DNA from: a virus
Taxonomy: Duplodnaviria > Heunggongvirae > Uroviricota > Caudoviricetes
Reading direction: 5' to 3' (one strand)
DNA: 38,383 nucleotides
IMG/VR virus record: IMGVR_UViG_2711768032_000008
Location: 1-38,383 of that record
This document shows positions 698 through 38,383 of this stretch, one piece after another. The notes beneath the pieces are model-generated. The model ran no database searches and was not told the origin of the DNA. It saw only the letters and a list, made by a program, of their open reading frames with translations. Each line of letters begins with the position of its first letter. The stretch's first letter is position 1. Made by a program: the position numbers and the translations under genes.

Positions 698-1060
698 GGG
701 GCTGATTCTGGATTCGACGGGATTTGCGAAACCCAAGGTGCATGCCGAGGGGCGGTTGGCCTCGTAAAAAGCCGCAAAAAATAGTCGCAAACGACGAAAA
801 CTACGCTTTAGCAGCTTAATAACCTGCTTAGAGCCCTCTCTCCCTAGCCTCCGCTCTTAGGACGGGGATCAAGAGAGGTCAAACCCAAAAGAGATCGCGT
901 GGAAGCCCTGCCTGGGGTTGAAGCGTTAAAACTTAATCAGGCTAGTTTGTTAGTGGCGTGTCCGTCCGCAGCTGGCAAGCGAATGTAAAGACTGACTAAG
1001 CATGTAGTACCGAGGATGTAGGAATTTCGGACGCGGGTTCAACTCCCGCCAGCTCCACCA
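698..1060 (+). ncRNA. ssrA: tmRNA (SsrA), 363 nt
   Basis: Begins GGGGCTGATTCTGGATTCGACGGG and ends with tRNA-like GGTTCAACTCCCGCCAGCTCCACCA; internal tag reading frame GCA AAC GAC GAA AAC TAC GCT TTA GCA GCT TAA (ANDENYALAA) at 787-819. Confidence 0.95.
1016..1060 (+). repeat. attL core: 45-bp ssrA 3' end, one of two identical direct repeats
   Basis: ATGTAGGAATTTCGGACGCGGGTTCAACTCCCGCCAGCTCCACCA is present identically at 1016-1060 and 32402-32446. Confidence 0.85.
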
Positions 1061-8488: not shown

Positions 8489-9556
8489 GTGAAGCTAACA
8501 AAAGAACAAAGTGATATTTTATATATCGTTAAAGGAATTGGGATTTTCACTGTTGTAATTGGTCATAGCTGGGGTATTCTTGTAAGTTTAACAAAACCTT
8601 ATTTTTACCATATGCCATTATTCTTTTTTATCGGTGGTTTTTTCCTGAGTGGTGAAGAACCAATTAAAGCCGCAACAAGAACCATCAAAAAAATCACCAC
8701 TTACTTAATAATAACATACATTATAATAGGGGTAGCATCAGAAATAATATCTTCCTTTTATGAAGTGGATTTTGGAACACCTTTTTCAACAGATACCATT
8801 AGAACCGTAGTTGCAACTTTAGAACATAATTTTCATAACAACGAATTATTTTTTGTCGGATGGTTTCTTTTTGCATATGCGCTGGCAAATATCACATCAG
8901 AAATAATACTATCATTACTATTGAAAATTAAAAACAATAGTTTAAAAAAAGCAGCACCTATTATCACTGCAATCATACTAGGTGTTGTATCCGTAAATTT
9001 CACAGCACATATTTATAAAAACTCCGAGTTGCAAATTTACAATCTAATCTCACAAGTGCTTTATGCCTCAATGTTTATGTTAATTGGATATTCCATCCGC
9101 AATATAGCGTTAAACTTTAAAAATAACATGTTATCTATCGTGTTATTCGCTTTAGTGGTGCTATTATATTTAACCGGCGTTGCAAAACAAATGATAATGT
9201 CATGGAGCACTTATCCGTCTGGTTTTATTATTTCAAGCATTGTAGCACTATCTTGTATTTTATTAATATTCTTTGCAGCTCAACATATAAACAAAACTGT
9301 TCTATCCGCCTTTTTTATTGATGCCGGAAAATACTCTAGAAACATAATGTCATACCACCTCTGCATATTTGTAATGTTAGACATATGTTTTTCAACCATA
9401 GGCTTATGGGATATGAAGAATACAAAAACGCTTTCTCACTATCAAAGTTCATATTCTCAACTCTTGTATCCTTTCATCGCAGCGGTAGTCCCATTATACA
9501 TAGCAAAAATATTATCGAGAGGGAAAAGCAAAATAATATCAATCACCTCTCAATAA
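8489..9556 (+). CDS. Acyltransferase family 3 integral membrane protein (OafA/Oac-like)
   Basis: 355 aa, about 10 hydrophobic segments, N-terminal ...GIGIFTVVIGHSWG motif typical of acyltransferase_3; AT-rich; GTG start; lies between tail fibre assembly and sheath genes (P2 Z/fun position). Confidence 0.7.
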   Translation: MKLTKEQSDILYIVKGIGIFTVVIGHSWGILVSLTKPYFYHMPLFFFIGGFFLSGEEPIKAATRTIKKITTYLIITYIIIGVASEIISSFYEVDFGTPFSTDTIRTVVATLEHNFHNNELFFVGWFLFAYALANITSEIILSLLLKIKNNSLKKAAPIITAIILGVVSVNFTAHIYKNSELQIYNLISQVLYASMFMLIGYSIRNIALNFKNNMLSIVLFALVVLLYLTGVAKQMIMSWSTYPSGFIISSIVALSCILLIFFAAQHINKTVLSAFFIDAGKYSRNIMSYHLCIFVMLDICFSTIGLWDMKNTKTLSHYQSSYSQLLYPFIAAVVPLYIAKILSRGKSKIISITSQ

Positions 9557-13817: not shown

Positions 13818-14624
13818 ATGAGTGTTATGAATCCAATAAGTTCTAATATATTTAATGCTGAATTTTTAAATACCCCGGCAGCGGCACTTGCCGCATGGAT
13901 TTCCATTATTGGAGCTGCTATAACTCTGGTGACGATAGTTATAAGAGCACTATTCAAATATAGAAAGTCTCATGATGTAATTTTGAAAAAATCAGGAATA
14001 CCTGCGTTTATATTAAATTTTTTTCTTATACGAATATCATTAAAAAGGCTGCCTACTATCACATGGGCTGAAAAATCAATCGCGGTTCTCTTTTCACTTC
14101 TTTTTTTGTATGCAATTTATATTTTTGGTCCAGTTTTCATCCAAACCATTAGAACCCCACCAAATAGCACATTGCTTTATTGGATAAAGTCCGGTGAATC
14201 ATTTTACATATCAAAAAAACTGGCGACTGCAGCTACAATATTAACCACTCCTGATTGGGAAATATCAAAGGATGATTGCGAACAGTCATCCTCTGCCAGT
14301 TCAGAGAAGTACAAATCATTAACTATCGAACATAAAGAAATTCTTTGTAAACTACTAACCACTGATGAAGGGAATGCTTACATTGATAAAGCAGTCAAGA
14401 AGTTCGTTAAAGACAAATTCTTTATCTATTCCTTTACCCCAATGACCATATTTATTCTATTATGGCTTTCTTTGGGTTTTATGCTGACCATTCACTATTC
14501 TAAAAAAGTCAGGAAATATATTCTAACTGAACAAAAAAGTGCAATTCATTGGGCAAATGGTGAATTCAAGACAGAAGGAATCTATTCAATATATCAAGAG
14601 TTAGAACGTAAGACTCACCATTAA
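13818..14624 (+). CDS. Hypothetical membrane protein (prophage cargo between S and V)
   Basis: 268 aa, AT-rich, opposite strand to the late operon; hydrophobic segments (AAALAAWISIIGAAITLVTIVI, IAVLFSLLFLYAIYIFGPVFI, IYSFTPMTIFILLWLSLGFML); SD-like AGGTGG upstream; no family recognised. Confidence 0.6.
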   Translation: MSVMNPISSNIFNAEFLNTPAAALAAWISIIGAAITLVTIVIRALFKYRKSHDVILKKSGIPAFILNFFLIRISLKRLPTITWAEKSIAVLFSLLFLYAIYIFGPVFIQTIRTPPNSTLLYWIKSGESFYISKKLATAATILTTPDWEISKDDCEQSSSASSEKYKSLTIEHKEILCKLLTTDEGNAYIDKAVKKFVKDKFFIYSFTPMTIFILLWLSLGFMLTIHYSKKVRKYILTEQKSAIHWANGEFKTEGIYSIYQELERKTHH

Positions 14625-23252: not shown

Positions 23253-24656
23253 TTAAGGATCCCTGTTGATTTGTTTTTTTACGTGAAAAGCATTATTAAA
23301 TTTATCGACAAGCTCGCCATCTTCTAATGCGCTGAACAATGACCTGTTTTGCACATTGAATAATTCAATCTCATCGCCCCGCCCCTCAATATAGACATCT
23401 ATAATATGCGATGCCTTACTACCTTCTCCAAAGTCTCGAAAAAAACAAACTAGGTTATCTAAGTTGTTAGGTGTTATAGTTTTAAAGTTATCTAAAAAAC
23501 TTTGATATAATGAATTTATAACTTCAGACTGATTGTTATCAAATGAGTCGCGATATAACCCCCAAGCAATAGTGAAGTTATCTCTAGACTTTCCATCTAG
23601 AACTAACTCATTCATCTTTTTGATTTCATCATCTAGCATTAACTTATTATAATACCCATCCTTAACAGCACTAATAAGGATCCTATCCAAGTCAGATGTG
23701 TTGTGATATTTGTATTTATTGATAATTTCCTTCCAAGCTAGTTTCTTTGAGTCATTGTCTTTTTCATTGTTAAATGAACCATAGAACATAAATTCATCTT
23801 TTTCTATAAACTGTATCGGAGGTACTAATTCATCATCATTAAAACAATAATAGCTCCATGAAAAAAGTACAATAGAATGCATAATGGAGTACAAAATACC
23901 ATCATCCATATTCTTAGTATGAAGATACGCCTCATCGATTAAACGTTCTATTTTTTTTAGCACACGGATATTAGTTATTCCGACACTTGAGGTTAAAGAT
24001 CTCAAATCATCATGAAATCTTTTTTTTCCGTCATACGCGATTTGCGCACACTCATAAGGTGTTGGTTTAAACGTAAATTCAATATCAATTACTTTTTCTT
24101 TATAAGTTTCATAGTCCTTAGTTTCACTAGTCCCATCATTTAATAGCAATACCACTTTGCATTTTTTTTGTTCTTTAAGATGTGAAACCAATCCTAATAC
24201 ATCCTTCAACGGCAATCCATCGCCTTTCCTCTCTAAATCATCTATGCATACTATAATATTTTTTAGAGACATAAATGACAATGCTTCTAAGGCTGGTGCA
24301 AAATCTTTCACATAAGGCATGTTTTTCACAAAGTTCATTGCCTTTCTACCAAAACCCTCTGACAGAGCCAATGCATTTTGTTTAAAAGTTTCAATATTTG
24401 GCTCGATACCAATTGAAGATGTTGGAATCGCATTTTCAAATATAGAATACTTTAAGGCATCAAGAGAGTTCACTCCGAATAATGACACGTATGAATATCG
24501 TTCAAATTCTATATTAACTTCCTGCTTCGCTGTTTGTAAAAAATTATTCCAGCCATAGGTCTTTCCTACACCCCACTTACCTTTTATCGCTACTACCGCT
24601 GATTCTTCATTATTAAGAAAATTAAATATTTGCTCGCGAACTATAGCTATTGACAT
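23253..24656 (-). CDS. KAP-family P-loop NTPase (candidate anti-phage cargo)
   Basis: 467 aa; Walker A GKWGVGKT with the Trp typical of KAP NTPases, Walker B-like IVCIDDLERK; strongly AT-rich compared with flanking phage genes; between cos and Q. Confidence 0.75.
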   Translation of the reverse strand: MSIAIVREQIFNFLNNEESAVVAIKGKWGVGKTYGWNNFLQTAKQEVNIEFERYSYVSLFGVNSLDALKYSIFENAIPTSSIGIEPNIETFKQNALALSEGFGRKAMNFVKNMPYVKDFAPALEALSFMSLKNIIVCIDDLERKGDGLPLKDVLGLVSHLKEQKKCKVVLLLNDGTSETKDYETYKEKVIDIEFTFKPTPYECAQIAYDGKKRFHDDLRSLTSSVGITNIRVLKKIERLIDEAYLHTKNMDDGILYSIMHSIVLFSWSYYCFNDDELVPPIQFIEKDEFMFYGSFNNEKDNDSKKLAWKEIINKYKYHNTSDLDRILISAVKDGYYNKLMLDDEIKKMNELVLDGKSRDNFTIAWGLYRDSFDNNQSEVINSLYQSFLDNFKTITPNNLDNLVCFFRDFGEGSKASHIIDVYIEGRGDEIELFNVQNRSLFSALEDGELVDKFNNAFHVKKQINRDP

Positions 24657-29597: not shown

Positions 29598-30230
29598 ATG
29601 ATACACGTGAAAGCGGGCGAGAATACCGGGGGAAGAGAGGCTATCCATAGGCTAATGGCTGCCTACGATTTCAAGTCCAGACAGCAACTGTGCGATCACC
29701 TGGGCGCATCAAAAAGCACTATGGCAAACAGATACTTAAGAGATAGTTTTCCGGCGGAATGGGTGATTCAGTGCGCTCTGGAGACAGGTGTTTCTTTACT
29801 CTGGCTAACAACCGGTCAGGGCGAGCCAAGTTCAAATATTGATTCGAAAAAAAATATCAATTTCGTGAACTCTGGCAAAGTCAAACCCCTTTCTGAGCTT
29901 GTTTCCCCCGAAATTGATAAGGCAACTCTCAACGGTGGCTTATTGGTCGATGCTGGAAAAGCAATCATTGATAGCAGCCTGCTCCCCTCAGACTCAAGCA
30001 ACCTATTGCTGGTGAATACTTCTGGAGATTCTTATTTAGTGGACCGCAGCCAAACACCTCCAGTTAACGGTATGTGGTTGGTAGATATCGACGGAATAAA
30101 AAGCATCGTGAAGTTAACACGGCTACCAGGAAACAGATTGGTGGTCCATCAAGACGAATCATCCTTTGAGTGCAGCCTTGATGATATCGAGGTAGTAGGC
30201 CGCGCTTTAAAAATAATTAAGAGCCTTTGA
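29598..30230 (+). CDS. cI: CI-type immunity repressor (186-like)
   Basis: 210 aa with N-terminal HTH; immediately upstream of int in the same orientation. Confidence 0.75.
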   Translation: MIHVKAGENTGGREAIHRLMAAYDFKSRQQLCDHLGASKSTMANRYLRDSFPAEWVIQCALETGVSLLWLTTGQGEPSSNIDSKKNINFVNSGKVKPLSELVSPEIDKATLNGGLLVDAGKAIIDSSLLPSDSSNLLLVNTSGDSYLVDRSQTPPVNGMWLVDIDGIKSIVKLTRLPGNRLVVHQDESSFECSLDDIEVVGRALKIIKSL

Positions 30231-30231
30231 T

Positions 30232-31251
30232 ATGACCATCAGAAAGCAGCCAAACGGAAAATGGTTGTGTGAATGCTACCCGAACGGGCGCGACGGCAAG
30301 CGTGTGCGCAAACAATTTTCGACAAAAGGCGAGGCCATAGCATTCGAAAACTTCACCATGGATGAAGTGAACAAAAAACCATGGCTAGGGGAAAAGGAAG
30401 ATCGGCGGAATCTGTCAGAAGTGATAGAGCAATGGCACTCACTCTACGGACAAACGCTTGCAGACCCCAAACGCCTGATGGCGAAACTCAACATTATTTG
30501 TAATGGTCTTGGCGATCCCATCGCCTCAGAGTTAACCGCCGGTGATTTTACGAAATACCGCGAAGCGCGGTTAAAAGGTGAAGTGCGAAATGAAGAGGGC
30601 GCACTTATGTCGCCGGTTAAGCCCCGCACGGTAAACCTTGAACAACGCAACCTATCATCGGTTTTTGGCACACTGAAAAAGCTGGGCCACTGGTCAGCGC
30701 CCAATCCGCTCGCCGGATTGCCAACATTTAAAATCGCTGAGGGCGAACTGGCATTCCTGGCCCCGGAAGAAATTAAACGCCTGCTGGATGCCTGCGCTGA
30801 TTCTCAAAGCCCCAGCCTGCTGATGATTGCAAAAATATGCCTGGCCACCGGCGCACGCTGGAGTGAAGCCGAAAACCTGCAGGGCCATCAGTTATCGAAA
30901 TACCGGATCACCTACACAAAGACCAAAGGCAAGAAAAACCGAACCGTGCCAATATCTCAGAAACTGCACGATGAACTCCCCAAAAACAGAGGGAAGCTAT
31001 TCACCCCATGCAGAAAAGCCTTTGAGCGTGCAGTGAAGCGAGCTGGTATCGACCTGCCAGAAGGTCAATGTACTCATGTGCTTCGGCATACATTCGCCAG
31101 TCACTTTATGATGAACGGCGGAAACATACTGGTACTGCGCGATATTCTTGGTCACTCTGATATTAAAATGACAATGGTCTATGCACACTTCGCTCCAGAC
31201 CATTTAGAAGATGCAGTGACGAAAAACCCACTTGCTATGTTGGAAGTTTAA
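30232..31251 (+). CDS. int: Tyrosine integrase (P2/186-type)
   Basis: 339 aa; C-terminal catalytic region with HVLRHTFASH and LGHSDIKMTMVYAH (Tyr). Confidence 0.9.
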   Translation: MTIRKQPNGKWLCECYPNGRDGKRVRKQFSTKGEAIAFENFTMDEVNKKPWLGEKEDRRNLSEVIEQWHSLYGQTLADPKRLMAKLNIICNGLGDPIASELTAGDFTKYREARLKGEVRNEEGALMSPVKPRTVNLEQRNLSSVFGTLKKLGHWSAPNPLAGLPTFKIAEGELAFLAPEEIKRLLDACADSQSPSLLMIAKICLATGARWSEAENLQGHQLSKYRITYTKTKGKKNRTVPISQKLHDELPKNRGKLFTPCRKAFERAVKRAGIDLPEGQCTHVLRHTFASHFMMNGGNILVLRDILGHSDIKMTMVYAHFAPDHLEDAVTKNPLAMLEV

Positions 31252-31252
31252 T

Positions 31253-31783
31253 ATGGACAAAAGCTTAGTAGCTCTTTTTTACTTTTCGTTTTTATTTTTA
31301 AGTTTTTTTGTTTTTATTAAGTATCGACTTTACGAACTCGATCATAGAAGCTTATTCCAGCAACCTCTTTTTTGGGCTGCAATTGCACTCCCCTTACTCA
31401 CTTGTTTTTTCTTAGGCTCATTAGTTTGGATAGATAAAATCCACTCCTTCAGTCTTACAAGTCATGGTTACGAAAGATTTCTTGAAATATCTAAATTGCC
31501 ATTACTGGTTCTAGCTTCATCTGTTCCCCTAGTTTCAATAGTTAATAACCTTCACAGAACGAAACAAACAGAAAAACAAATTTCAGAGGCCGAACAAAAA
31601 AACAGAGTAGATCTATATTATAACCATATGAAATTCAACTTAGATTTGTATAAAAAAATTGAAACAAAAAAAAATTATCAGCTACTACCCTGTAGTGGAT
31701 GCCCACAAAGAAGCTATATATCAGCATTATATCAAACATCCACAAGAGCTTTACAGGAAAGCATACCCTCAATCTACCCCTGA
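31253..31783 (+). CDS. Membrane-anchored hypothetical protein, N-terminal part (frameshifted cargo gene)
   Basis: AT-rich; two or three N-terminal transmembrane helices; frame ends 110 bp after an A9 tract (31666-31674). Confidence 0.5.
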   Translation: MDKSLVALFYFSFLFLSFFVFIKYRLYELDHRSLFQQPLFWAAIALPLLTCFFLGSLVWIDKIHSFSLTSHGYERFLEISKLPLLVLASSVPLVSIVNNLHRTKQTEKQISEAEQKNRVDLYYNHMKFNLDLYKKIETKKNYQLLPCSGCPQRSYISALYQTSTRALQESIPSIYP

Positions 31784-32285
31784 TAATTCACAACAATTGA
31801 AAATCAATGATAACTTTGTTATAGAACTACATAAGTGCTGGATTGAAATTAATGCCAGACTTAAACAATTATCAGAAAGCGAAACTCAACTAGATCCAAC
31901 TCAAGAATTTTGTACTTCAAAGATGAGAATTTTCTTTGGAATAATGAGTATTTATGTAAAGACTTGCAAGCATCTTTGCTTGGGTGGATTTCATGACCAA
32001 AAGTCATTCATTTTGAATGATAATTATGATAAGTATCAAATTTATTCACCGTTCTATGACTTTGGTACAATGTACCAATCTCTGCAATCTCTAGAAGAGA
32101 TCACATTCGCTTTCTTAGATACCTGCAGAAATGAAGAGGTTAATTTATATTTCCCATTGGACGACAAAATTCTGATTTATGGTGAAGGGATTCTACAAAA
32201 TTGGTATGGATACTCTCGATTCTTGATTTCTACCGCCTATCAGCCCGCAAAGATGGTGCGTTTACAACCGCTGATGCGTGAATGA
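31659..32285 (+). CDS. Hypothetical protein, C-terminal part of the same frameshifted cargo gene
   Basis: 208-aa ORF in the +1 frame beginning inside the A9 tract (TTG start in the ORF track); removing one A fuses it to the upstream ORF. Confidence 0.45.
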   Translation: MKQKKIISYYPVVDAHKEAIYQHYIKHPQELYRKAYPQSTPDNSQQLKINDNFVIELHKCWIEINARLKQLSESETQLDPTQEFCTSKMRIFFGIMSIYVKTCKHLCLGGFHDQKSFILNDNYDKYQIYSPFYDFGTMYQSLQSLEEITFAFLDTCRNEEVNLYFPLDDKILIYGEGILQNWYGYSRFLISTAYQPAKMVRLQPLMRE

Positions 32286-32401: not shown

Positions 32402-32446
32402 ATGTAGGAATTTCGGACGCGGGTTCAACTCCCGCCAGCTCCACCA
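32402..32446 (+). repeat. attR core: displaced copy of the ssrA 3' end (45 bp)
   Basis: Identical to 1016-1060; no tmRNA 5' portion upstream. Confidence 0.85.
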
Positions 32447-32611
32447 CTTTTTAGTTGTTTGAAGTTCAATGAAGTCTACTAAGCCCACACAGCACAAGCT
32501 CTGCGGGCTTTTTTACGTCTATTGTCGTCCAGTGAGAATTGCTGAGAACTACGAGTTATGGCACCCTGAATGGGACCCACTAAGAAGGGTCCAAAAACCG
32601 AGGGTCCCAAA

Positions 32612-33841
32612 ATGGCAAAAATCGCTAAGAAGCTCACTGACACTGAAATCAAAAGCACCAAGCCAGCCGATAAAGAAATCAACTTGTTTGACGGTGATGG
32701 TCTGATTCTACGAATCGCTCCTTTGGCGAAAGGAGGCAAGAAAAATTGGTATTTCAGGTATGCAGTACCAGTGAGCAAGAAAAGAACCAAAATGAGCCTT
32801 GGGACATATCCTCACCTTACCCTTGCAAGAGCCAGAGCCTTACGTGATGAATATCTCTCCTTTCTGGCAAATGGTGTTGATCCCCAAATCCATAACAACG
32901 ATAAGGCGAAGGCATTAAAGAGTGCTACTGAGCACACTCTCCAAGCCGTAGCGCGGAAATGGTTAGATGAGAAGGTAAAGACATCAGGTATCTCACAAGA
33001 CCATGCAGCAGACATCTGGCGCAGCTTAGAGAGAAATGTCTTTCCCGGTCTGGGTAATGTCCCTATCAATGAGATCCGACCTAAGCTCTTAAAACAACAC
33101 CTTGATCCTATTGAGCAACGAGGCGTATTGGAAACTCTACGCCGTATCATTTCACGTCTGAATGAAATCTTCCGGTGGGCAGCTACTGAAGAACTTATTG
33201 AGTTCAACCCGGCTGACAACCTTGGTCAAAGATTCAGTAAACCAAAAAAGCAAAATATGCCTGCCCTTCCCCCAAGCGAATTGCCAAGGTTTATGGAATC
33301 TTTGACGAATGCGTCAATCCGGTTGGAAACACGTATGCTAATTGAATGGCAATTGTTGACATGGGTTCGTCCGGGTGAAGCCGTTCGCGCAAGGTGGTCT
33401 GATATTGATACAACCAACAGCATTTGGAACATTCCTGCTGATTTCATGAAAATGAAAAAGCTTCACAAAGTTCCTTTGAGTAAAGAAGCTTTGCGCATCC
33501 TTGAATTAATGAAATCAATAAGTGGGCATAGAGAATGGGTTTTCCCCAGCATAAAAGCGCCTCTTAATCATATGCATGAACAAACAGCCAACGCAGCTAT
33601 CATCCGAATGGGGTTCGGAGGCGAGCTTGTAGCTCACGGTATGCGTTCTATTGCACGAACAGCGGCAGAGGAGTCTGGTAAATTCAGAGCTGAAGTTCTT
33701 GAGGCAGCGCTTGCCCACTCGAAAAAAGATGAAATTATCGCAGCATACAATCGTGCAGAATATCTGATAGAGCGACAGAGTTTGATGCAATGGTGGAGTG
33801 ATTACGTTCAAGCTCAAAGATCAAATGCTCTGGTAGCCTAA
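32612..33841 (+). CDS. Tyrosine integrase, P4/CP4-57 (IntA)-like
   Basis: Start chosen at MAKIAKKLTDTEIKSTKP (tracked ORF from 32570); N-terminal LTDTEIK...DGDGL motif and C-terminal HGMRSIARTAA...AYNRAEY catalytic region. Confidence 0.85.
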   Translation: MAKIAKKLTDTEIKSTKPADKEINLFDGDGLILRIAPLAKGGKKNWYFRYAVPVSKKRTKMSLGTYPHLTLARARALRDEYLSFLANGVDPQIHNNDKAKALKSATEHTLQAVARKWLDEKVKTSGISQDHAADIWRSLERNVFPGLGNVPINEIRPKLLKQHLDPIEQRGVLETLRRIISRLNEIFRWAATEELIEFNPADNLGQRFSKPKKQNMPALPPSELPRFMESLTNASIRLETRMLIEWQLLTWVRPGEAVRARWSDIDTTNSIWNIPADFMKMKKLHKVPLSKEALRILELMKSISGHREWVFPSIKAPLNHMHEQTANAAIIRMGFGGELVAHGMRSIARTAAEESGKFRAEVLEAALAHSKKDEIIAAYNRAEYLIERQSLMQWWSDYVQAQRSNALVA

Positions 33842-33879
33842 GTATCAGAATAGCTAATATAATCCTGAAGGTAAAGAAA

Positions 33880-34296
33880 ATGGAAACCCTATTCAAAGTT
33901 TTTGAAAAATTTAGTTCCAGACCACTTTTTTTTATTTTTTTCGGACTCTCACTTTGTGAATTTTTTCAGAAACAATCTGTTCTGATGAATCCATCAGCAG
34001 ATAACATCGCGAAATTATTCGCAGCCATGATATTAGTTGTTTTTTTTACTTGGGGATTTGAATGGCTAATCTTCAAGTTCAATGTAAACCTTGAACCTCA
34101 TGATCAAGGCGATATTGGACCAACAATTGGAACGGCTACTTTAGCTGTATACTTAGTTTATGCCTTTCACTTTCTCAGTGAAAATCCTGAAGCATTAAAT
34201 TTAAAGTTATTAACTAACTCTGGCTTTATATACAGCACAACTCTATTATTATTCTCATTAGAATGCATGAAGCTTAGAAGACTTAAACAAAAATAA
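33880..34296 (+). CDS. Small hypothetical membrane protein (about 4 TM segments)
   Basis: 138 aa, AT-rich, hydrophobic stretches (LFFIFFGLSL, FAAMILVVFFTWGFEWLIF, TATLAVYLVYAFHFL, FIYSTTLLLFSL). Confidence 0.5.
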   Translation: METLFKVFEKFSSRPLFFIFFGLSLCEFFQKQSVLMNPSADNIAKLFAAMILVVFFTWGFEWLIFKFNVNLEPHDQGDIGPTIGTATLAVYLVYAFHFLSENPEALNLKLLTNSGFIYSTTLLLFSLECMKLRRLKQK

Positions 34297-34367
34297 ACAA
34301 CATCATTGTGATGATAAATATAAAATAGGCATGGCGAAAAAAAATCACCACGCCTAAAATATAATAA

Positions 34368-36134
34368 TTATGGTAGCATCATTGATACATAATCCACACC
34401 AATCCTTGAGCTATACTGAGACGCTATAGCCTGATATCTTTCTGCATAACCAGTTCTCAGTTGAGATTTAAGTTTGAGTCGGACAGGAACATTTTGCACG
34501 TTGCCATCCATATTACTTAAAAACACGGCAGAAATAATATTTTTTTCTTCGCCATCAACTGTTGTTCCATGATTCAACACCACCATATAATCAACAACAG
34601 GAAGCGTTTTATCCCCTTCGAAAATAGAGAGATATTTTCTTTGATTTTTATGCATTACATATATATATTTCGAATGTTCAGCAAATGGCAATGCTTTACT
34701 CTGACTGGCGTTAAAAAGCTCCAGAACTTTAATGAGCCTGTGCGGACTTAATCTTACATGGTGAGGGTCGTTACCCTGAGTAGGAACCAAATCACATGCC
34801 GCAGATACACATAAATACCATTTGTTCGACTCTGTATCAAAGAAAATAGTGCCAGTAGAAATATGACCATCTTCAAAATTCTTTGAAGACAAATTCATAT
34901 TTAAAGCATGATACATTTCGTGATAAGTATCATTATTTGATGGCAGATCCATTTTTGAAGAGCAATATTGGAGCAATGCAGCAACTCCGCTGTTAGCGTA
35001 TTCATTTGAATAGCTATCAAAAACACTTTTGATAAATTCATCCAGCGTATTATTATTTTTAAGTCTTTGATAAAGCTCTTCTGATAAATTACCAAATACA
35101 AAGTCAATATTTCTACATCTAATATCAGGCGAGTCTGATTTTAATATCTCATTTAACCACGCAGCTTGACCGTAATGATCGTTAGCCAAATGATTTACAA
35201 AAGATAAAGCCTCAGCTTCGATTGCATTCTGAATTTCAGATTTTATTAACTGATAATAAGATGGTTTCCATTCAATGAGAGAATCATTGAGAGTTTGCCA
35301 AATCCTATCTCCATCGTTTTCATGATCATCTTGAACCTTATGAAATAGGGAGACAAAGATATTACCACATTGAATCCATTTTACTCCGCTTTCATCACCC
35401 CGAATGACATTGCCAGATGTGTTGCTAGAAATAATTGCATTTCTAGACACAGCATATTCTGCAATCATTTTTGCAATGAAGTTTTTATCCTTTTGATCCT
35501 CCAACACAGCATCATCATGTATTAATCTTTTAATTCTTCTACAAGGCTTACTGTCTTTAATATAGGCTATTGTTTCATCTCTTGTGAGAGCTTTATTACC
35601 ATTATCATTTAAGTTCGGTAATACAACGTCTTCCCAATAACTTTGGACATCTTCATTATCGTAGTCAATGATCAAGCTGTTGATATCCAGAGCACCTTTG
35701 AGAGTCGATGATATCTGCATCCAAACCGTTTCTAAATTCTCTCTAGTATATATTACAATCATATTTAAATGATCGGAGTCTTTCAAATCTTGTAATAGTT
35801 TAAGTGTTTTATCAGGTGCATTATTATCAAGATGATAATCTACAATAATAAGATCTGATTTCCTAATCCGATCCACATCGAAATTAACAGAACCATTGTC
35901 AACATCACAAATCATATTTTTAGATTGAAAAAAGCTCTCAAGAGTAGCGGCTCGTTTAGATGAGTCAATTTTGTTGTAGTCTAAATCAACTTCGTTATTC
36001 AACGCCCTGATTGATTCAGAATACGTCAGAAAATCGTCATCAATCATGACAACGGAACGAATTGCATTTTCGCAGAAAGTTTTCTGGACAAGAGAATTAT
36101 AATTTGCCACTGTCATATTAGAACTCCACTCCAT
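34368..36134 (-). CDS. Receiver (REC)-like domain protein with large uncharacterised C-terminal domain
   Basis: 588 aa; N-terminal VVMIDDD ... DLIIVDYHL ... NMIVIYT resembles a response-regulator receiver fold; the remaining ~450 aa match nothing I recognise; AT-rich; 17-bp overlap with the upstream kinase-like gene. Confidence 0.6.
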   Translation of the reverse strand: MEWSSNMTVANYNSLVQKTFCENAIRSVVMIDDDFLTYSESIRALNNEVDLDYNKIDSSKRAATLESFFQSKNMICDVDNGSVNFDVDRIRKSDLIIVDYHLDNNAPDKTLKLLQDLKDSDHLNMIVIYTRENLETVWMQISSTLKGALDINSLIIDYDNEDVQSYWEDVVLPNLNDNGNKALTRDETIAYIKDSKPCRRIKRLIHDDAVLEDQKDKNFIAKMIAEYAVSRNAIISSNTSGNVIRGDESGVKWIQCGNIFVSLFHKVQDDHENDGDRIWQTLNDSLIEWKPSYYQLIKSEIQNAIEAEALSFVNHLANDHYGQAAWLNEILKSDSPDIRCRNIDFVFGNLSEELYQRLKNNNTLDEFIKSVFDSYSNEYANSGVAALLQYCSSKMDLPSNNDTYHEMYHALNMNLSSKNFEDGHISTGTIFFDTESNKWYLCVSAACDLVPTQGNDPHHVRLSPHRLIKVLELFNASQSKALPFAEHSKYIYVMHKNQRKYLSIFEGDKTLPVVDYMVVLNHGTTVDGEEKNIISAVFLSNMDGNVQNVPVRLKLKSQLRTGYAERYQAIASQYSSRIGVDYVSMMLP

Positions 36135-37836
36135 TGAACTGGATCACAAAATTAGCGCCATCTTTTATTAAATAGTTATCGCCTTCATCAGGTTCTGAAT
36201 ACCATATTTTATGATGTGCAACAGCAAGGTTTTCTCGACATAGATACAGACCTACCCCATGTCCATTTGCTCTTTTGCTATAAAATAGTTCAAATAGTCG
36301 CGGGATATCATCGGTATCAATTGCCGGACCAGAATTTGCTATGATAACCAAAGAATTCACAAAACCAATCTTTATGAGCCTATTATTTGACAGACTGACC
36401 CAATACATTGCATTGTTGATAATATTAGTAAAAACAGGATAGATCCTTGATGGTATATCTGTTATTGCGATTTGCTTAAACTCTTCACTAAATTCAATAG
36501 TTATTCGTTGCCGTTCGAAACGCTCCCCAAAGAACTTCAGGACATAATCCATGATATTTTTTCCAGTTATTCTCTGCCTGGATTGATAACCTGATATTTT
36601 CAAAGGTGATAAGAAACGTATTTGTTGAGTAAGCGATCTGTGAGCATTTAACGCCAATGAAAAACCAGGGTGTTCTTTTACAGAAGTAGGAAGAGAGTTT
36701 AGTCCTCTGGTTACCATAGAATCCATTTCTTCAAGTTCATGAGATGTTATCTCAACACTAATACCTAACTGTGCAAGCGCGTTTAAACTTTTAGCTTTTT
36801 CTTCAAAATATGAGCGTTCTTCTTCAGATAATGAGAATGCTGAATCTAAGTTTATACCTTCAAATAATCTATCGAGACCTTTTATTATTGATTGATATTT
36901 GAAAGTTAGGGTATCAACTGACTCAACATATAAACTATCGAGCAAATTAAACACATTTTCAATTTGTGAATCATTATCTATTGAATCAACAACTGATATA
37001 GTTTTAGCATAATAATCACTTCGATCAACCTTTATTTCATCGGCCCATTTTTTTAAAAGAGAATGTATCTTCTCCTCTATCGTGTTATTAAACTTAGTTA
37101 GTTTAGAATTAATAATACCTTGATTTTTTTCAAGGTGATTTTTCGCTGCCAATGAAGGCTCAAGTTTATTTAATTCAGAATCAAGTTTATTAATTGCTAA
37201 CTTCATTTGTAGAATATACGCAGAGAACTCATTAAATTTATCTCTGTAGTCTCTATATTTCTCTTCATACATTCCAAGTTTTGGAGGTTTGATAGGCGTT
37301 TTAATTTCACTGCGCAACGCATCTAAGTTTGTAAGATCACTGTCTATAATTTTAAGATAGTTTAAATCTAACGAACCATCAGTTTTATCAAGCTTAGTTT
37401 TCAGCCTTTTAACAGCCTCCAAGGAAGCATCAAGAACTGGTGTCTGATTCTTCAAAGCTTCTGAAAAACTTTTTTGTGTTGATTTTCGAGCTTGTTGTTG
37501 AGCAGATTTTCTTAACTCTTTTTCACGCTTAACTTGTTCTAAAAGCTCTTTACGGTCATCAGAACGTGAACCAAAAAATCTATCAGCAAGTTCAGTTAAC
37601 AAATTAGATATAATAGTTTTCAGTTCTCTTGCAGCCTGGTATCTTATGAATCCCTCTCTCCCCGACTTATCTTTCAGCTCTTTATTACTGGATTGAGTAA
37701 TTCCAATATAACCAAAAATCCTTCTATTAGACCAATAATATCGCCCTGCATTCCATGAACGTCTTTCTTCTATCTGGAAGAAATCATTATCTACTCGACC
37801 ATAAGGTAATACTCTCAAGCTATCCCTAAAAATCAT
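36118..37836 (-). CDS. Histidine-kinase-like protein (H-box + HATPase_c), 5'-truncated by IS3
   Basis: C-terminal TSHELEEM (H-box-like), N-box NIINNAMYW, G1 IANSGPAID, G2 GHGVGL; long coiled-coil-rich N-terminal region; frame stays open upstream of the first Met to the IS3 junction (in-frame stop only at 37963-37965, inside the IS). Confidence 0.6.
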   Translation of the reverse strand: MIFRDSLRVLPYGRVDNDFFQIEERRSWNAGRYYWSNRRIFGYIGITQSSNKELKDKSGREGFIRYQAARELKTIISNLLTELADRFFGSRSDDRKELLEQVKREKELRKSAQQQARKSTQKSFSEALKNQTPVLDASLEAVKRLKTKLDKTDGSLDLNYLKIIDSDLTNLDALRSEIKTPIKPPKLGMYEEKYRDYRDKFNEFSAYILQMKLAINKLDSELNKLEPSLAAKNHLEKNQGIINSKLTKFNNTIEEKIHSLLKKWADEIKVDRSDYYAKTISVVDSIDNDSQIENVFNLLDSLYVESVDTLTFKYQSIIKGLDRLFEGINLDSAFSLSEEERSYFEEKAKSLNALAQLGISVEITSHELEEMDSMVTRGLNSLPTSVKEHPGFSLALNAHRSLTQQIRFLSPLKISGYQSRQRITGKNIMDYVLKFFGERFERQRITIEFSEEFKQIAITDIPSRIYPVFTNIINNAMYWVSLSNNRLIKIGFVNSLVIIANSGPAIDTDDIPRLFELFYSKRANGHGVGLYLCRENLAVAHHKIWYSEPDEGDNYLIKDGANFVIQFNGVEF

Positions 37837-37957
37837 TAGTCCTGCATACTTTTTGGCCTTAAGATCAAAGTGGGAATGTTCACGTTCAGTATGTGATGTA
37901 TTTTGTGAAAGGAATTCAAACGTTCCTATCTGAAGCTCAAATGGGCCGACCCCTGCG

Positions 37958-38383
37958 TGATCCTACCCACGTAATATGGACACAGGCCTAAGCGAGGTTC
38001 TTGTTTTCAAATTGTTCCGGACTGAGGCCGCCACACCAACTGTGCCGCCGCCACCGATTGTAATCACATTCGATATAATTAAACACCGTTGCCCGCATTA
38101 TTTCCCGGCTGATAAAGTGTTCTCCATGGATACATTCCACTTTCAGCGAATGAAAGAAGCTTTCCACGCAGGCATTATCGTAGCAGCAACCTTTTGCGCT
38201 CATACTTCCACGCAGATTATGCCGCTTCAGTTGCGCCTGATAATCTGCTGAACAGTACTGGCCTCCACGGTCCGTGTGAACGATAACGTTCCGGGGCCTC
38301 TTACGCCGCCACAGCGCCATCTGCAGGGCATCGCAGGCCAGTTGCGCCGTCATGCGTGGCGACATTGACCAGCCAATAACGGC
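37958..38383 (-). mobile_element. IS3-family insertion sequence, right end (partial, runs off window)
   Basis: Terminal inverted repeat TGATCCTACCCACGTAATATGGACACAGGCCTAAG starting at 37958; contains the 3' part of a transposase gene. Confidence 0.8.
37988..38383 (-). CDS. IS3-family transposase OrfB, C-terminal fragment (5' end outside window)
   Basis: Translation ...[10 protein letters not shown]...[23 protein letters not shown]... is a DDE transposase C-terminus. Confidence 0.85.

Follow-up and report, generated by a model that had tools for sequence, protein, structure and literature searches.

A probable recent slipped-strand frameshift in a conserved membrane protein gene located between int and attR of an ssrA-integrated 186/P2-family prophage of Escherichia coli

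Introduction

Between the integrase gene and the right attachment site of an E. coli prophage, two open reading frames (ORFs) overlap in +1 register at a run of nine A. This arrangement raises the question of whether the two ORFs are genuine separate genes, the halves of one gene whose expression is switched by the length of the tract, a single gene that was broken recently, or an intact gene that appears split through a sequencing error. Here we address this question for the locus in a window of 38,383 nt, which is the whole stretch of DNA analyzed in this study and is identical in sequence to contig CXWQ01000021.1 of the E. coli draft genome GCA_001269145.1.

An original prediction for this locus had placed the A9 run and the overlapping ORFs at the positions listed in Table 1, had described the segment as AT-rich cargo of a prophage lying between int and attR, and had expected that deletion of one A would fuse the ORFs into a frame of about 343 codons with N-terminal transmembrane (TM) helices and a soluble C-terminal domain. 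All of these structural claims held in the analyses described below, and the positions were confirmed exactly.

Results and discussion

Prophage setting of the cargo gene

Two 45-bp repeats bound a prophage of roughly 31 kb, and the cargo gene lies inside it (Table 1). The gene order of CII, Apl/Rha-like, CI, int, cargo gene and attR, together with ORFs of the gpA, portal, capsid, tail and gpD types, identifies a member of the 186/P2 family. The stop codon of int (TAA) and the ATG of the cargo gene are separated by a gap of 1 nt, and no terminator-like site was found from cI to position 32496. Based on this close spacing and the lack of an intervening terminator, the cargo gene is probably co-transcribed with cI and int in the lysogen. 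The GC content of the cargo segment is 0.336 compared to 0.496 for the entire window. Outside the cargo gene, the gene map of the prophage is uninterrupted.

Table 1 Positions of the cargo gene, its parts and other features in the 38,383-nt window.
Feature	Position	Strand	Remarks
attL core	1016–1060	+	Last 45 bases of intact ssrA (tmRNA 698–1060, ARAGORN)
Acyl_transf_3 membrane acyltransferase	8489–9556	+	Adjoins tail-fibre assembly gene
DUF6216 protein	13818–14624	+	Strand opposite to surrounding late genes
KAP-family P-loop NTPase	23253–24656	−	467 aa; between gpA and portal gene
CI repressor	29598–30230	+	Pfam Phage_CI_repr and Phage_CI_C; first gene of the cI-int-cargo string
186/P2-type tyrosine integrase (int)	30232–31251	+	Pfam Int_N and Phage_integrase on the identical contig
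Whole cargo gene	31253–32285	+	Frameshifted allele of a 343-codon ORF, family phrog_17460
5′ ORF (ORF1)	31253–31783	+	ATG at 31253, stop at 31781–31783
A7 run	31652–31658		7 bases 5′ of the A9 tract
3′ ORF (ORF2)	31659–32285	+	+1 frame relative to ORF1; encodes the cytoplasmic C-terminal domain
A9 homopolymer	31666–31674	+	In-frame state A8: ACA AAA AAA ATT (T-K-K-I)
attR	32402–32446	+	45-bp exact copy of the ssrA 3′ end
Second island	32570–38383		In tandem at ssrA; ~35% GC past the integrase gene
P4-type integrase	32570–33841		Second island
Response_reg_2 protein	34368–36134	−	Second island
HATPase_c/HEF_HK protein	36118–37836	−	Second island
rve transposase fragment	37988–38365		Closes the second island

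Several other genes in the window deserve mention in their own right. The KAP-family NTPase (Pfam E 2.2e-9; PADLOC candidate system PDC-S49, E 9.6e-27) is encoded in a 33%-GC segment at the main P2 defence hotspot. The acyltransferase gene is situated in a 35%-GC insert and could be a lysogenic-conversion gene that modifies the O-antigen, and the DUF6216 gene occupies an AT-richer patch. Directly past attR begins a second island, which contains a Response_reg_2 and HATPase_c/HEF_HK pair typical of conflict systems; no PADLOC match was obtained for this island.

The two ORFs as parts of one gene

The product of ORF1 comprises 176 aa, consisting of 140 native residues, which include three TM helices and an invariant juxtamembrane motif, and of a 36-residue out-of-frame tail. 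When one A was removed from the tract, ORF1 and ORF2 merged into one ORF of 343 codons, and exactly this repaired protein exists in nature, as it is encoded on seven E. coli contigs (P0055). The repaired protein aligned end-to-end with the profile of phrog_17460 (positions 1–340 of 343, E 2.4e-164) and thus belongs to this family, which is annotated as of unknown function and represented by a 343-aa hypothetical protein of Enterobacteriaceae 186/P2-type prophages. Length and location right after int are the same in phrog_17460 and in the window; the window copy differs by the +1 A frameshift.

The homologues are not two separate conserved genes. Single-ORF homologues of ~340–400 aa occur in E. 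coli, Salmonella, Enterobacter, Citrobacter and Pseudomonas. A search of 5.8 billion proteins retrieved 54 relatives from Escherichia, Citrobacter, Kluyvera, Enterobacter, Cronobacter, Dickeya and Pseudomonas, nearly all of them 338–405 aa long, and an exhaustive profile search yielded 967 cluster representatives (50% identity) at E ≤ 1e-3, mostly of 320–400 aa. A 79%-identical allele is present in 20 complete E. coli genomes as one 343-aa CDS at the same location. The gene had no DNA match in the INPHARED phage collection. A comparison of the repaired window gene with the 79% allele gave NG86 dN/dS values of ~0.05 before and ~0.04 after the tract, which are rough because dS is saturated. These ratios point to purifying selection on both halves, which, as judged from this comparison, evolved as coding sequence of one protein.

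That the assemblies are right to annotate two genuine genes, one for a small membrane protein and the other for a soluble protein, is extremely unlikely in the light of these data. Gene callers indeed list two products in GCA_001269145.1 and in E. coli EC96. However, the homologues are single ORFs, and neither the 36-residue tail of ORF1 nor the first residues of ORF2 have a counterpart in any homologue. A direct reading of the sequence upstream of the candidate ORF2 starts (TTG at 31659 and GTG at 31695) also revealed no Shine–Dalgarno-like sequence, and on these grounds ORF2 is without a convincing start signal of its own. Taken as a whole, the family comparison indicates that the two annotated “hypothetical proteins” are one frameshifted gene.

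Tract length in close relatives

The A9 run is the longest homopolymer of the whole window. Its occurrence as such is within chance expectation, as dinucleotide shuffles averaged 1.38 runs of this kind, with at least one run present in 59 of the 100. The run is meaningful because it is sited exactly where the two ORFs join into a conserved protein.

The allele frequencies given here rest on protein-cluster counts, because tract scans with the exact pattern and its flanks found no match in JGI metagenome contigs or GTDB representative genomes. We used 15 listed members of the 18 in the 90%-identity protein cluster. In addition to the exact repaired protein, these comprise a D119V variant of 343 aa on 140 contigs (P0058), two other 343-aa variants (P0059 and P0066, 1 contig each), three contig-end partials that are in frame through the tract (P0009, P0060 and P0063, 1 contig each), the split forms of this window (P0056 and P0057), and the split forms of strain EC96 (P0061 and P0065, 1 contig). 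The fused form, far from being absent from all relatives, is therefore represented by P0055 and P0058. Among these listed members, ~152 in-frame contigs compare with three out-of-frame contigs (OFF ~2%), and the only two disrupted alleles are A9 in the window and A7 in EC96.

At the level of DNA, the comparison of A8 and A9 homologues that the original prediction had called for showed A8 in frame at one locus (L003), A9 in the window, A7 in EC96 (L001), and an interrupted tract in the 79% allele (L002; GGAAAAAGAATAGG). In the family alignment, the residues at the tract position are variable. Outside the tract, the genes of the window and EC96 agree at each of the 1024 positions, and the in-frame A8 gene differs at one position. 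Two slips in opposite directions thus happened on the same allele without any accumulated substitution, which marks the tract as a local mutational hotspot. The A7 run upstream of the tract (Table 1; TATAAAAAAATTG) is kept even in the 79% allele and showed no length variation across the loci compared.

The prophage of strain EC96 (NZ_CP060748.1; L001 and L018) is a sister of the window prophage and a remnant, in which the head and lysis genes are missing. ISKpn26 separates int from the cargo gene, ISEc21, ISEc31 and ISCro1 are found in and around gpA, and copies of IS1 are present. We considered that A7 in EC96 might be a long-read artefact, but this idea was weakened by the adjacent core genes, which carry no frameshift flags over 30 kb. 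The IS-ridden state of the remnant and the unflagged flanking core genes make the A7 allele look like genuine decay.

A9 as a real allele

If the A9 run were an artefact of sequencing or assembly, this strain would in truth have A8 and an intact gene. Homopolymers are classic sites of indel errors, the tract is the longest one of the window, and the split form is rare among relatives. Moreover, a systematic homopolymer error common to two Illumina data sets is conceivable, and the second of these data sets (SRR8625621) could stem from the same strain resequenced. We nevertheless regard an artefact as unlikely, because SRR8625621, an independent run from another submitter stream, assembles to A9: its contig in the Logan assembly (L015) is identical to the window over 2679 of 2679 bp including the tract. 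The 176-aa truncated product was called in both GCA_001269145.1 and this Logan assembly. The uninterrupted remainder of the prophage gene map also argues against an artefact. By these comparisons, A9 is probably a real DNA allele.

Origin of the frameshift

The presence of A7, A8 and A9 on near-identical alleles means that the locus has a length-varying, frame-shifting tract, as do the contingency loci of Neisseria, Haemophilus and Campylobacter, in which coding homopolymers (poly-G or poly-A) likewise differ by ±1 between otherwise like alleles. Through reversible slipped-strand mispairing, a maintained poly-A tract could place expression of a costly membrane or defence protein in an ON (A8) or OFF (A7, A9) state within lysogen populations. 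Such phase variation would account for the three tract lengths on 1-kb sequences that are otherwise nearly the same, and for the observation that every ORF-disrupting allele among the listed cluster members maps to the tract. The A7 and A9 slips are also a high proportion when set against the seven in-frame contigs of the exact allele, which leaves some room for selection of the OFF state. The broader data nonetheless render an evolved contingency gene improbable. ON and OFF are not both common, as shown by the contig counts of the cluster, and the prophage that carries the A7 OFF allele, that of EC96, is decaying. Occasional disruptions of the gene were also seen in alleles that have no such tract. 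Furthermore, the tract is not maintained, since it is interrupted in the 79% allele of the 20 complete E. coli genomes, and the family is kept as a single ORF. The tract simply encodes Lys-Lys within an AT-rich gene. In mismatch-repair-proficient E. coli, a run of eight A is on the short side for efficient switching, and this, too, counts against phase variation. In contrast to the known contingency loci, the tract is thus short, not conserved in the family, and rarely in the OFF state.

It is very unlikely that the A9 allele is a recoded “pseudo-pseudogene”, from which RNA polymerase slippage or ribosomal frameshifting would still produce some full-length protein in addition to the truncated membrane anchor. 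In many bacteria, transcriptional slippage becomes appreciable once a run reaches nine A or T, and disrupted E. coli ORFs that can be restored by such slippage have been described (Baranov et al. 2005; PMC1088944). The window resembles these cases in that an extra A creates a coding run of nine A and interrupts an ORF which other strains keep whole. However, in the published example an A inserted into the mRNA restores the frame, whereas here the mRNA would have to lose one A (or gain two), and deletion is a poor prospect for the E. coli RNA polymerase on poly(A): in reporter assays with this enzyme, none of the poly(A) runs examined gave detectable deletion slippage, and the enzyme is biased toward poly(T) (PMC6260861). 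A −1 ribosomal frameshift was rejected as a route, as the −1 frame hits a stop within 7 codons (the resulting tail is that of the EC96 product). The conserved slippery run of programmed slippage and frameshift sites, such as the IS-type 9A sites, dnaX and mxiE, has no equivalent here, since A9 is found only in this allele and its combination with overlapping ORFs is conserved in no relative. Full-length rescue from A9 would be possible in principle but, given the need to lose one A, the reporter results and the stop in the −1 frame, we expect it to be weak and not a conserved feature.

A related idea is that the A8 tract, having arisen by chance, is in effect a mutational ON/OFF switch for this E. 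coli lineage, and that the family is a new single-gene, membrane-anchored anti-phage or exclusion system. We consider this combination rather unlikely. If it were true, lysogens could shed a costly or self-toxic effector, and the two opposite slips on one invariant allele would be explained.

The explanation that fits best, and which we consider likely, is a recent and sporadic slipped-strand frameshift in one conserved accessory (moron) gene of the ssrA-integrated 186/P2-family prophage, with the tract being a mutational hotspot and not an evolved switch or recoding site. The frameshift must be recent, because the 204 codons downstream are still open and identical to those of intact alleles. 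According to this model, replication slippage would have lengthened a chance A8 tract, encoding part of Thr-Lys-Lys-Ile, to A9 in this strain. Translation of the A9 allele would then proceed through the 140 native residues, shift frame, and stop after 36 more codons. The truncated product would retain the three TM helices and the juxtamembrane motif and lack the cytoplasmic domain, with a predicted loss of function. Among the three options left by the original prediction, which were a phase-variable gene, a recent pseudogene and a sequencing error, the second one in the form of a recent frameshift is hence the one that agrees best with the data; phase variation found no support, and an error is unlikely.

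Architecture and conservation of the intact protein

Hydropathy analysis of the repaired protein revealed three hydrophobic segments at residues ~1–26, 37–63 and 76–100. An AlphaFold model of the 78%-identical homologue P0002, computed with 50 homologues (pLDDT 87, pTM 0.72), contains helices at residues 2–23 and 38–61 and a long helix at residues 70–135, which comprises TM3 and a stalk. Beyond this helix lie a β-hairpin and a domain of mixed helical structure. For the C-terminal domain specified by ORF2 of the window, the AF2 model (31674–32282) predicts a folded unit with a pLDDT of 92.8 and a pTM of 0.89. The distribution of charges suggests an N-out, C-in topology.

Conservation is uneven along the protein, with a mean identity within the family of 65% for residues 29–135 versus 29% for residues 136–343. 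Just past TM3, H101 and Q105 are invariant in 120 representatives that share ~25% overall identity, and R102, T103, T106, Q109, I110, K116, N117, D120, H125 and K127 are conserved in at least 90% of these representatives. The intact protein may be pictured as a lysogen-expressed inner-membrane protein with a conserved TM/stalk module that would work at the membrane and a variable cytoplasmic domain that would provide specificity.

Searches of Pfam, NCBIfam and PADLOC and of the PDB by sequence profile and by fold gave no match to the protein. None of the families in the known and candidate defence models of PADLOC-DB 2.0 matched the repaired protein, and the same was true of the Pseudomonas homologue. 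HEPN RNase domains (RiboL-PSP type) and membrane-tethered Abi effectors are counted among the closest known systems. By profile and motif, an assignment to HEPN (PF18735, RiboL-PSP-HEPN) was rejected for this subfamily: the query had no profile match, the best family member reached 25.1 bits and remained below the gathering threshold of 28.4, and matches occurred in 3 of 50 and 0 of 120 members. The HEPN motif Rx4-6H is absent from the aligned segment of the window protein (SESETQLDPTQ), and RNxxxH was found only in the P0014-like subgroup.

Genomic neighborhood and candidate role

In Enterobacterales, the gene directly follows int at the loci examined, including those of Enterobacter. Other E. 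coli carry in the same slot an HNH-motif protein or another unknown gene. The slot thus lies inside the att-bounded prophage and varies in content, as is characteristic of P2-like hotspot cargo. The occurrence of an AT-rich single gene in a variable slot is shared with the hotspot cargo of P2-like prophages (Rousset et al. 2022, PMC9122126; PMC13586616), whereas no known or candidate PADLOC 2.0 model matched in the present case. According to a 2026 survey in NAR (PMC13586616), the int-att gap is a minor P2 defence hotspot with 3% of the P2 defence systems. In Enterobacter hormaechei (L009 and L010, 6191–7381), a second unknown gene of 396 aa follows the homologue and precedes the chromosomal flank or the next integrase, which indicates that the int-att slot can hold two cargo genes. 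This 396-aa gene had no match in Pfam or PADLOC.

One of the Pseudomonas homologues (P0043; L011, Logan SRR4234974) lies inside a defence island, where it is surrounded by genes for a PDC-S15-like protein, a GajB-like UvrD helicase, an LmuB-like SMC ATPase and a Drt8 reverse transcriptase (E 1.4e-112). Another Pseudomonas homologue is located at the edge of a P2-like tail cluster.

Based on the int-att location and on the defence-island neighborhood in Pseudomonas, we tentatively propose single-gene anti-phage defence or superinfection exclusion, expressed in the lysogen, as the leading candidate for the role of the intact protein.

Implications

For annotation, these results mean that the pair of “hypothetical proteins” is best recorded as a single frameshifted gene. 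The frameshift itself is ordinary and changes no concept; the case illustrates how two Lys codons that happen to form an A8 tract can turn a site within AT-rich prophage cargo into a mutational hotspot. Of more use as a lead is the gene family, a widespread and uncharacterised group of three-TM proteins with an invariant juxtamembrane motif. In 186/P2-type prophages of E. coli, Salmonella and Enterobacter, the gene directly follows int, and in Pseudomonas it is found near Drt8-, Lamassu- and Gabija-like genes. This distribution and neighborhood make the family a reasonable candidate for a phage-defence screen.
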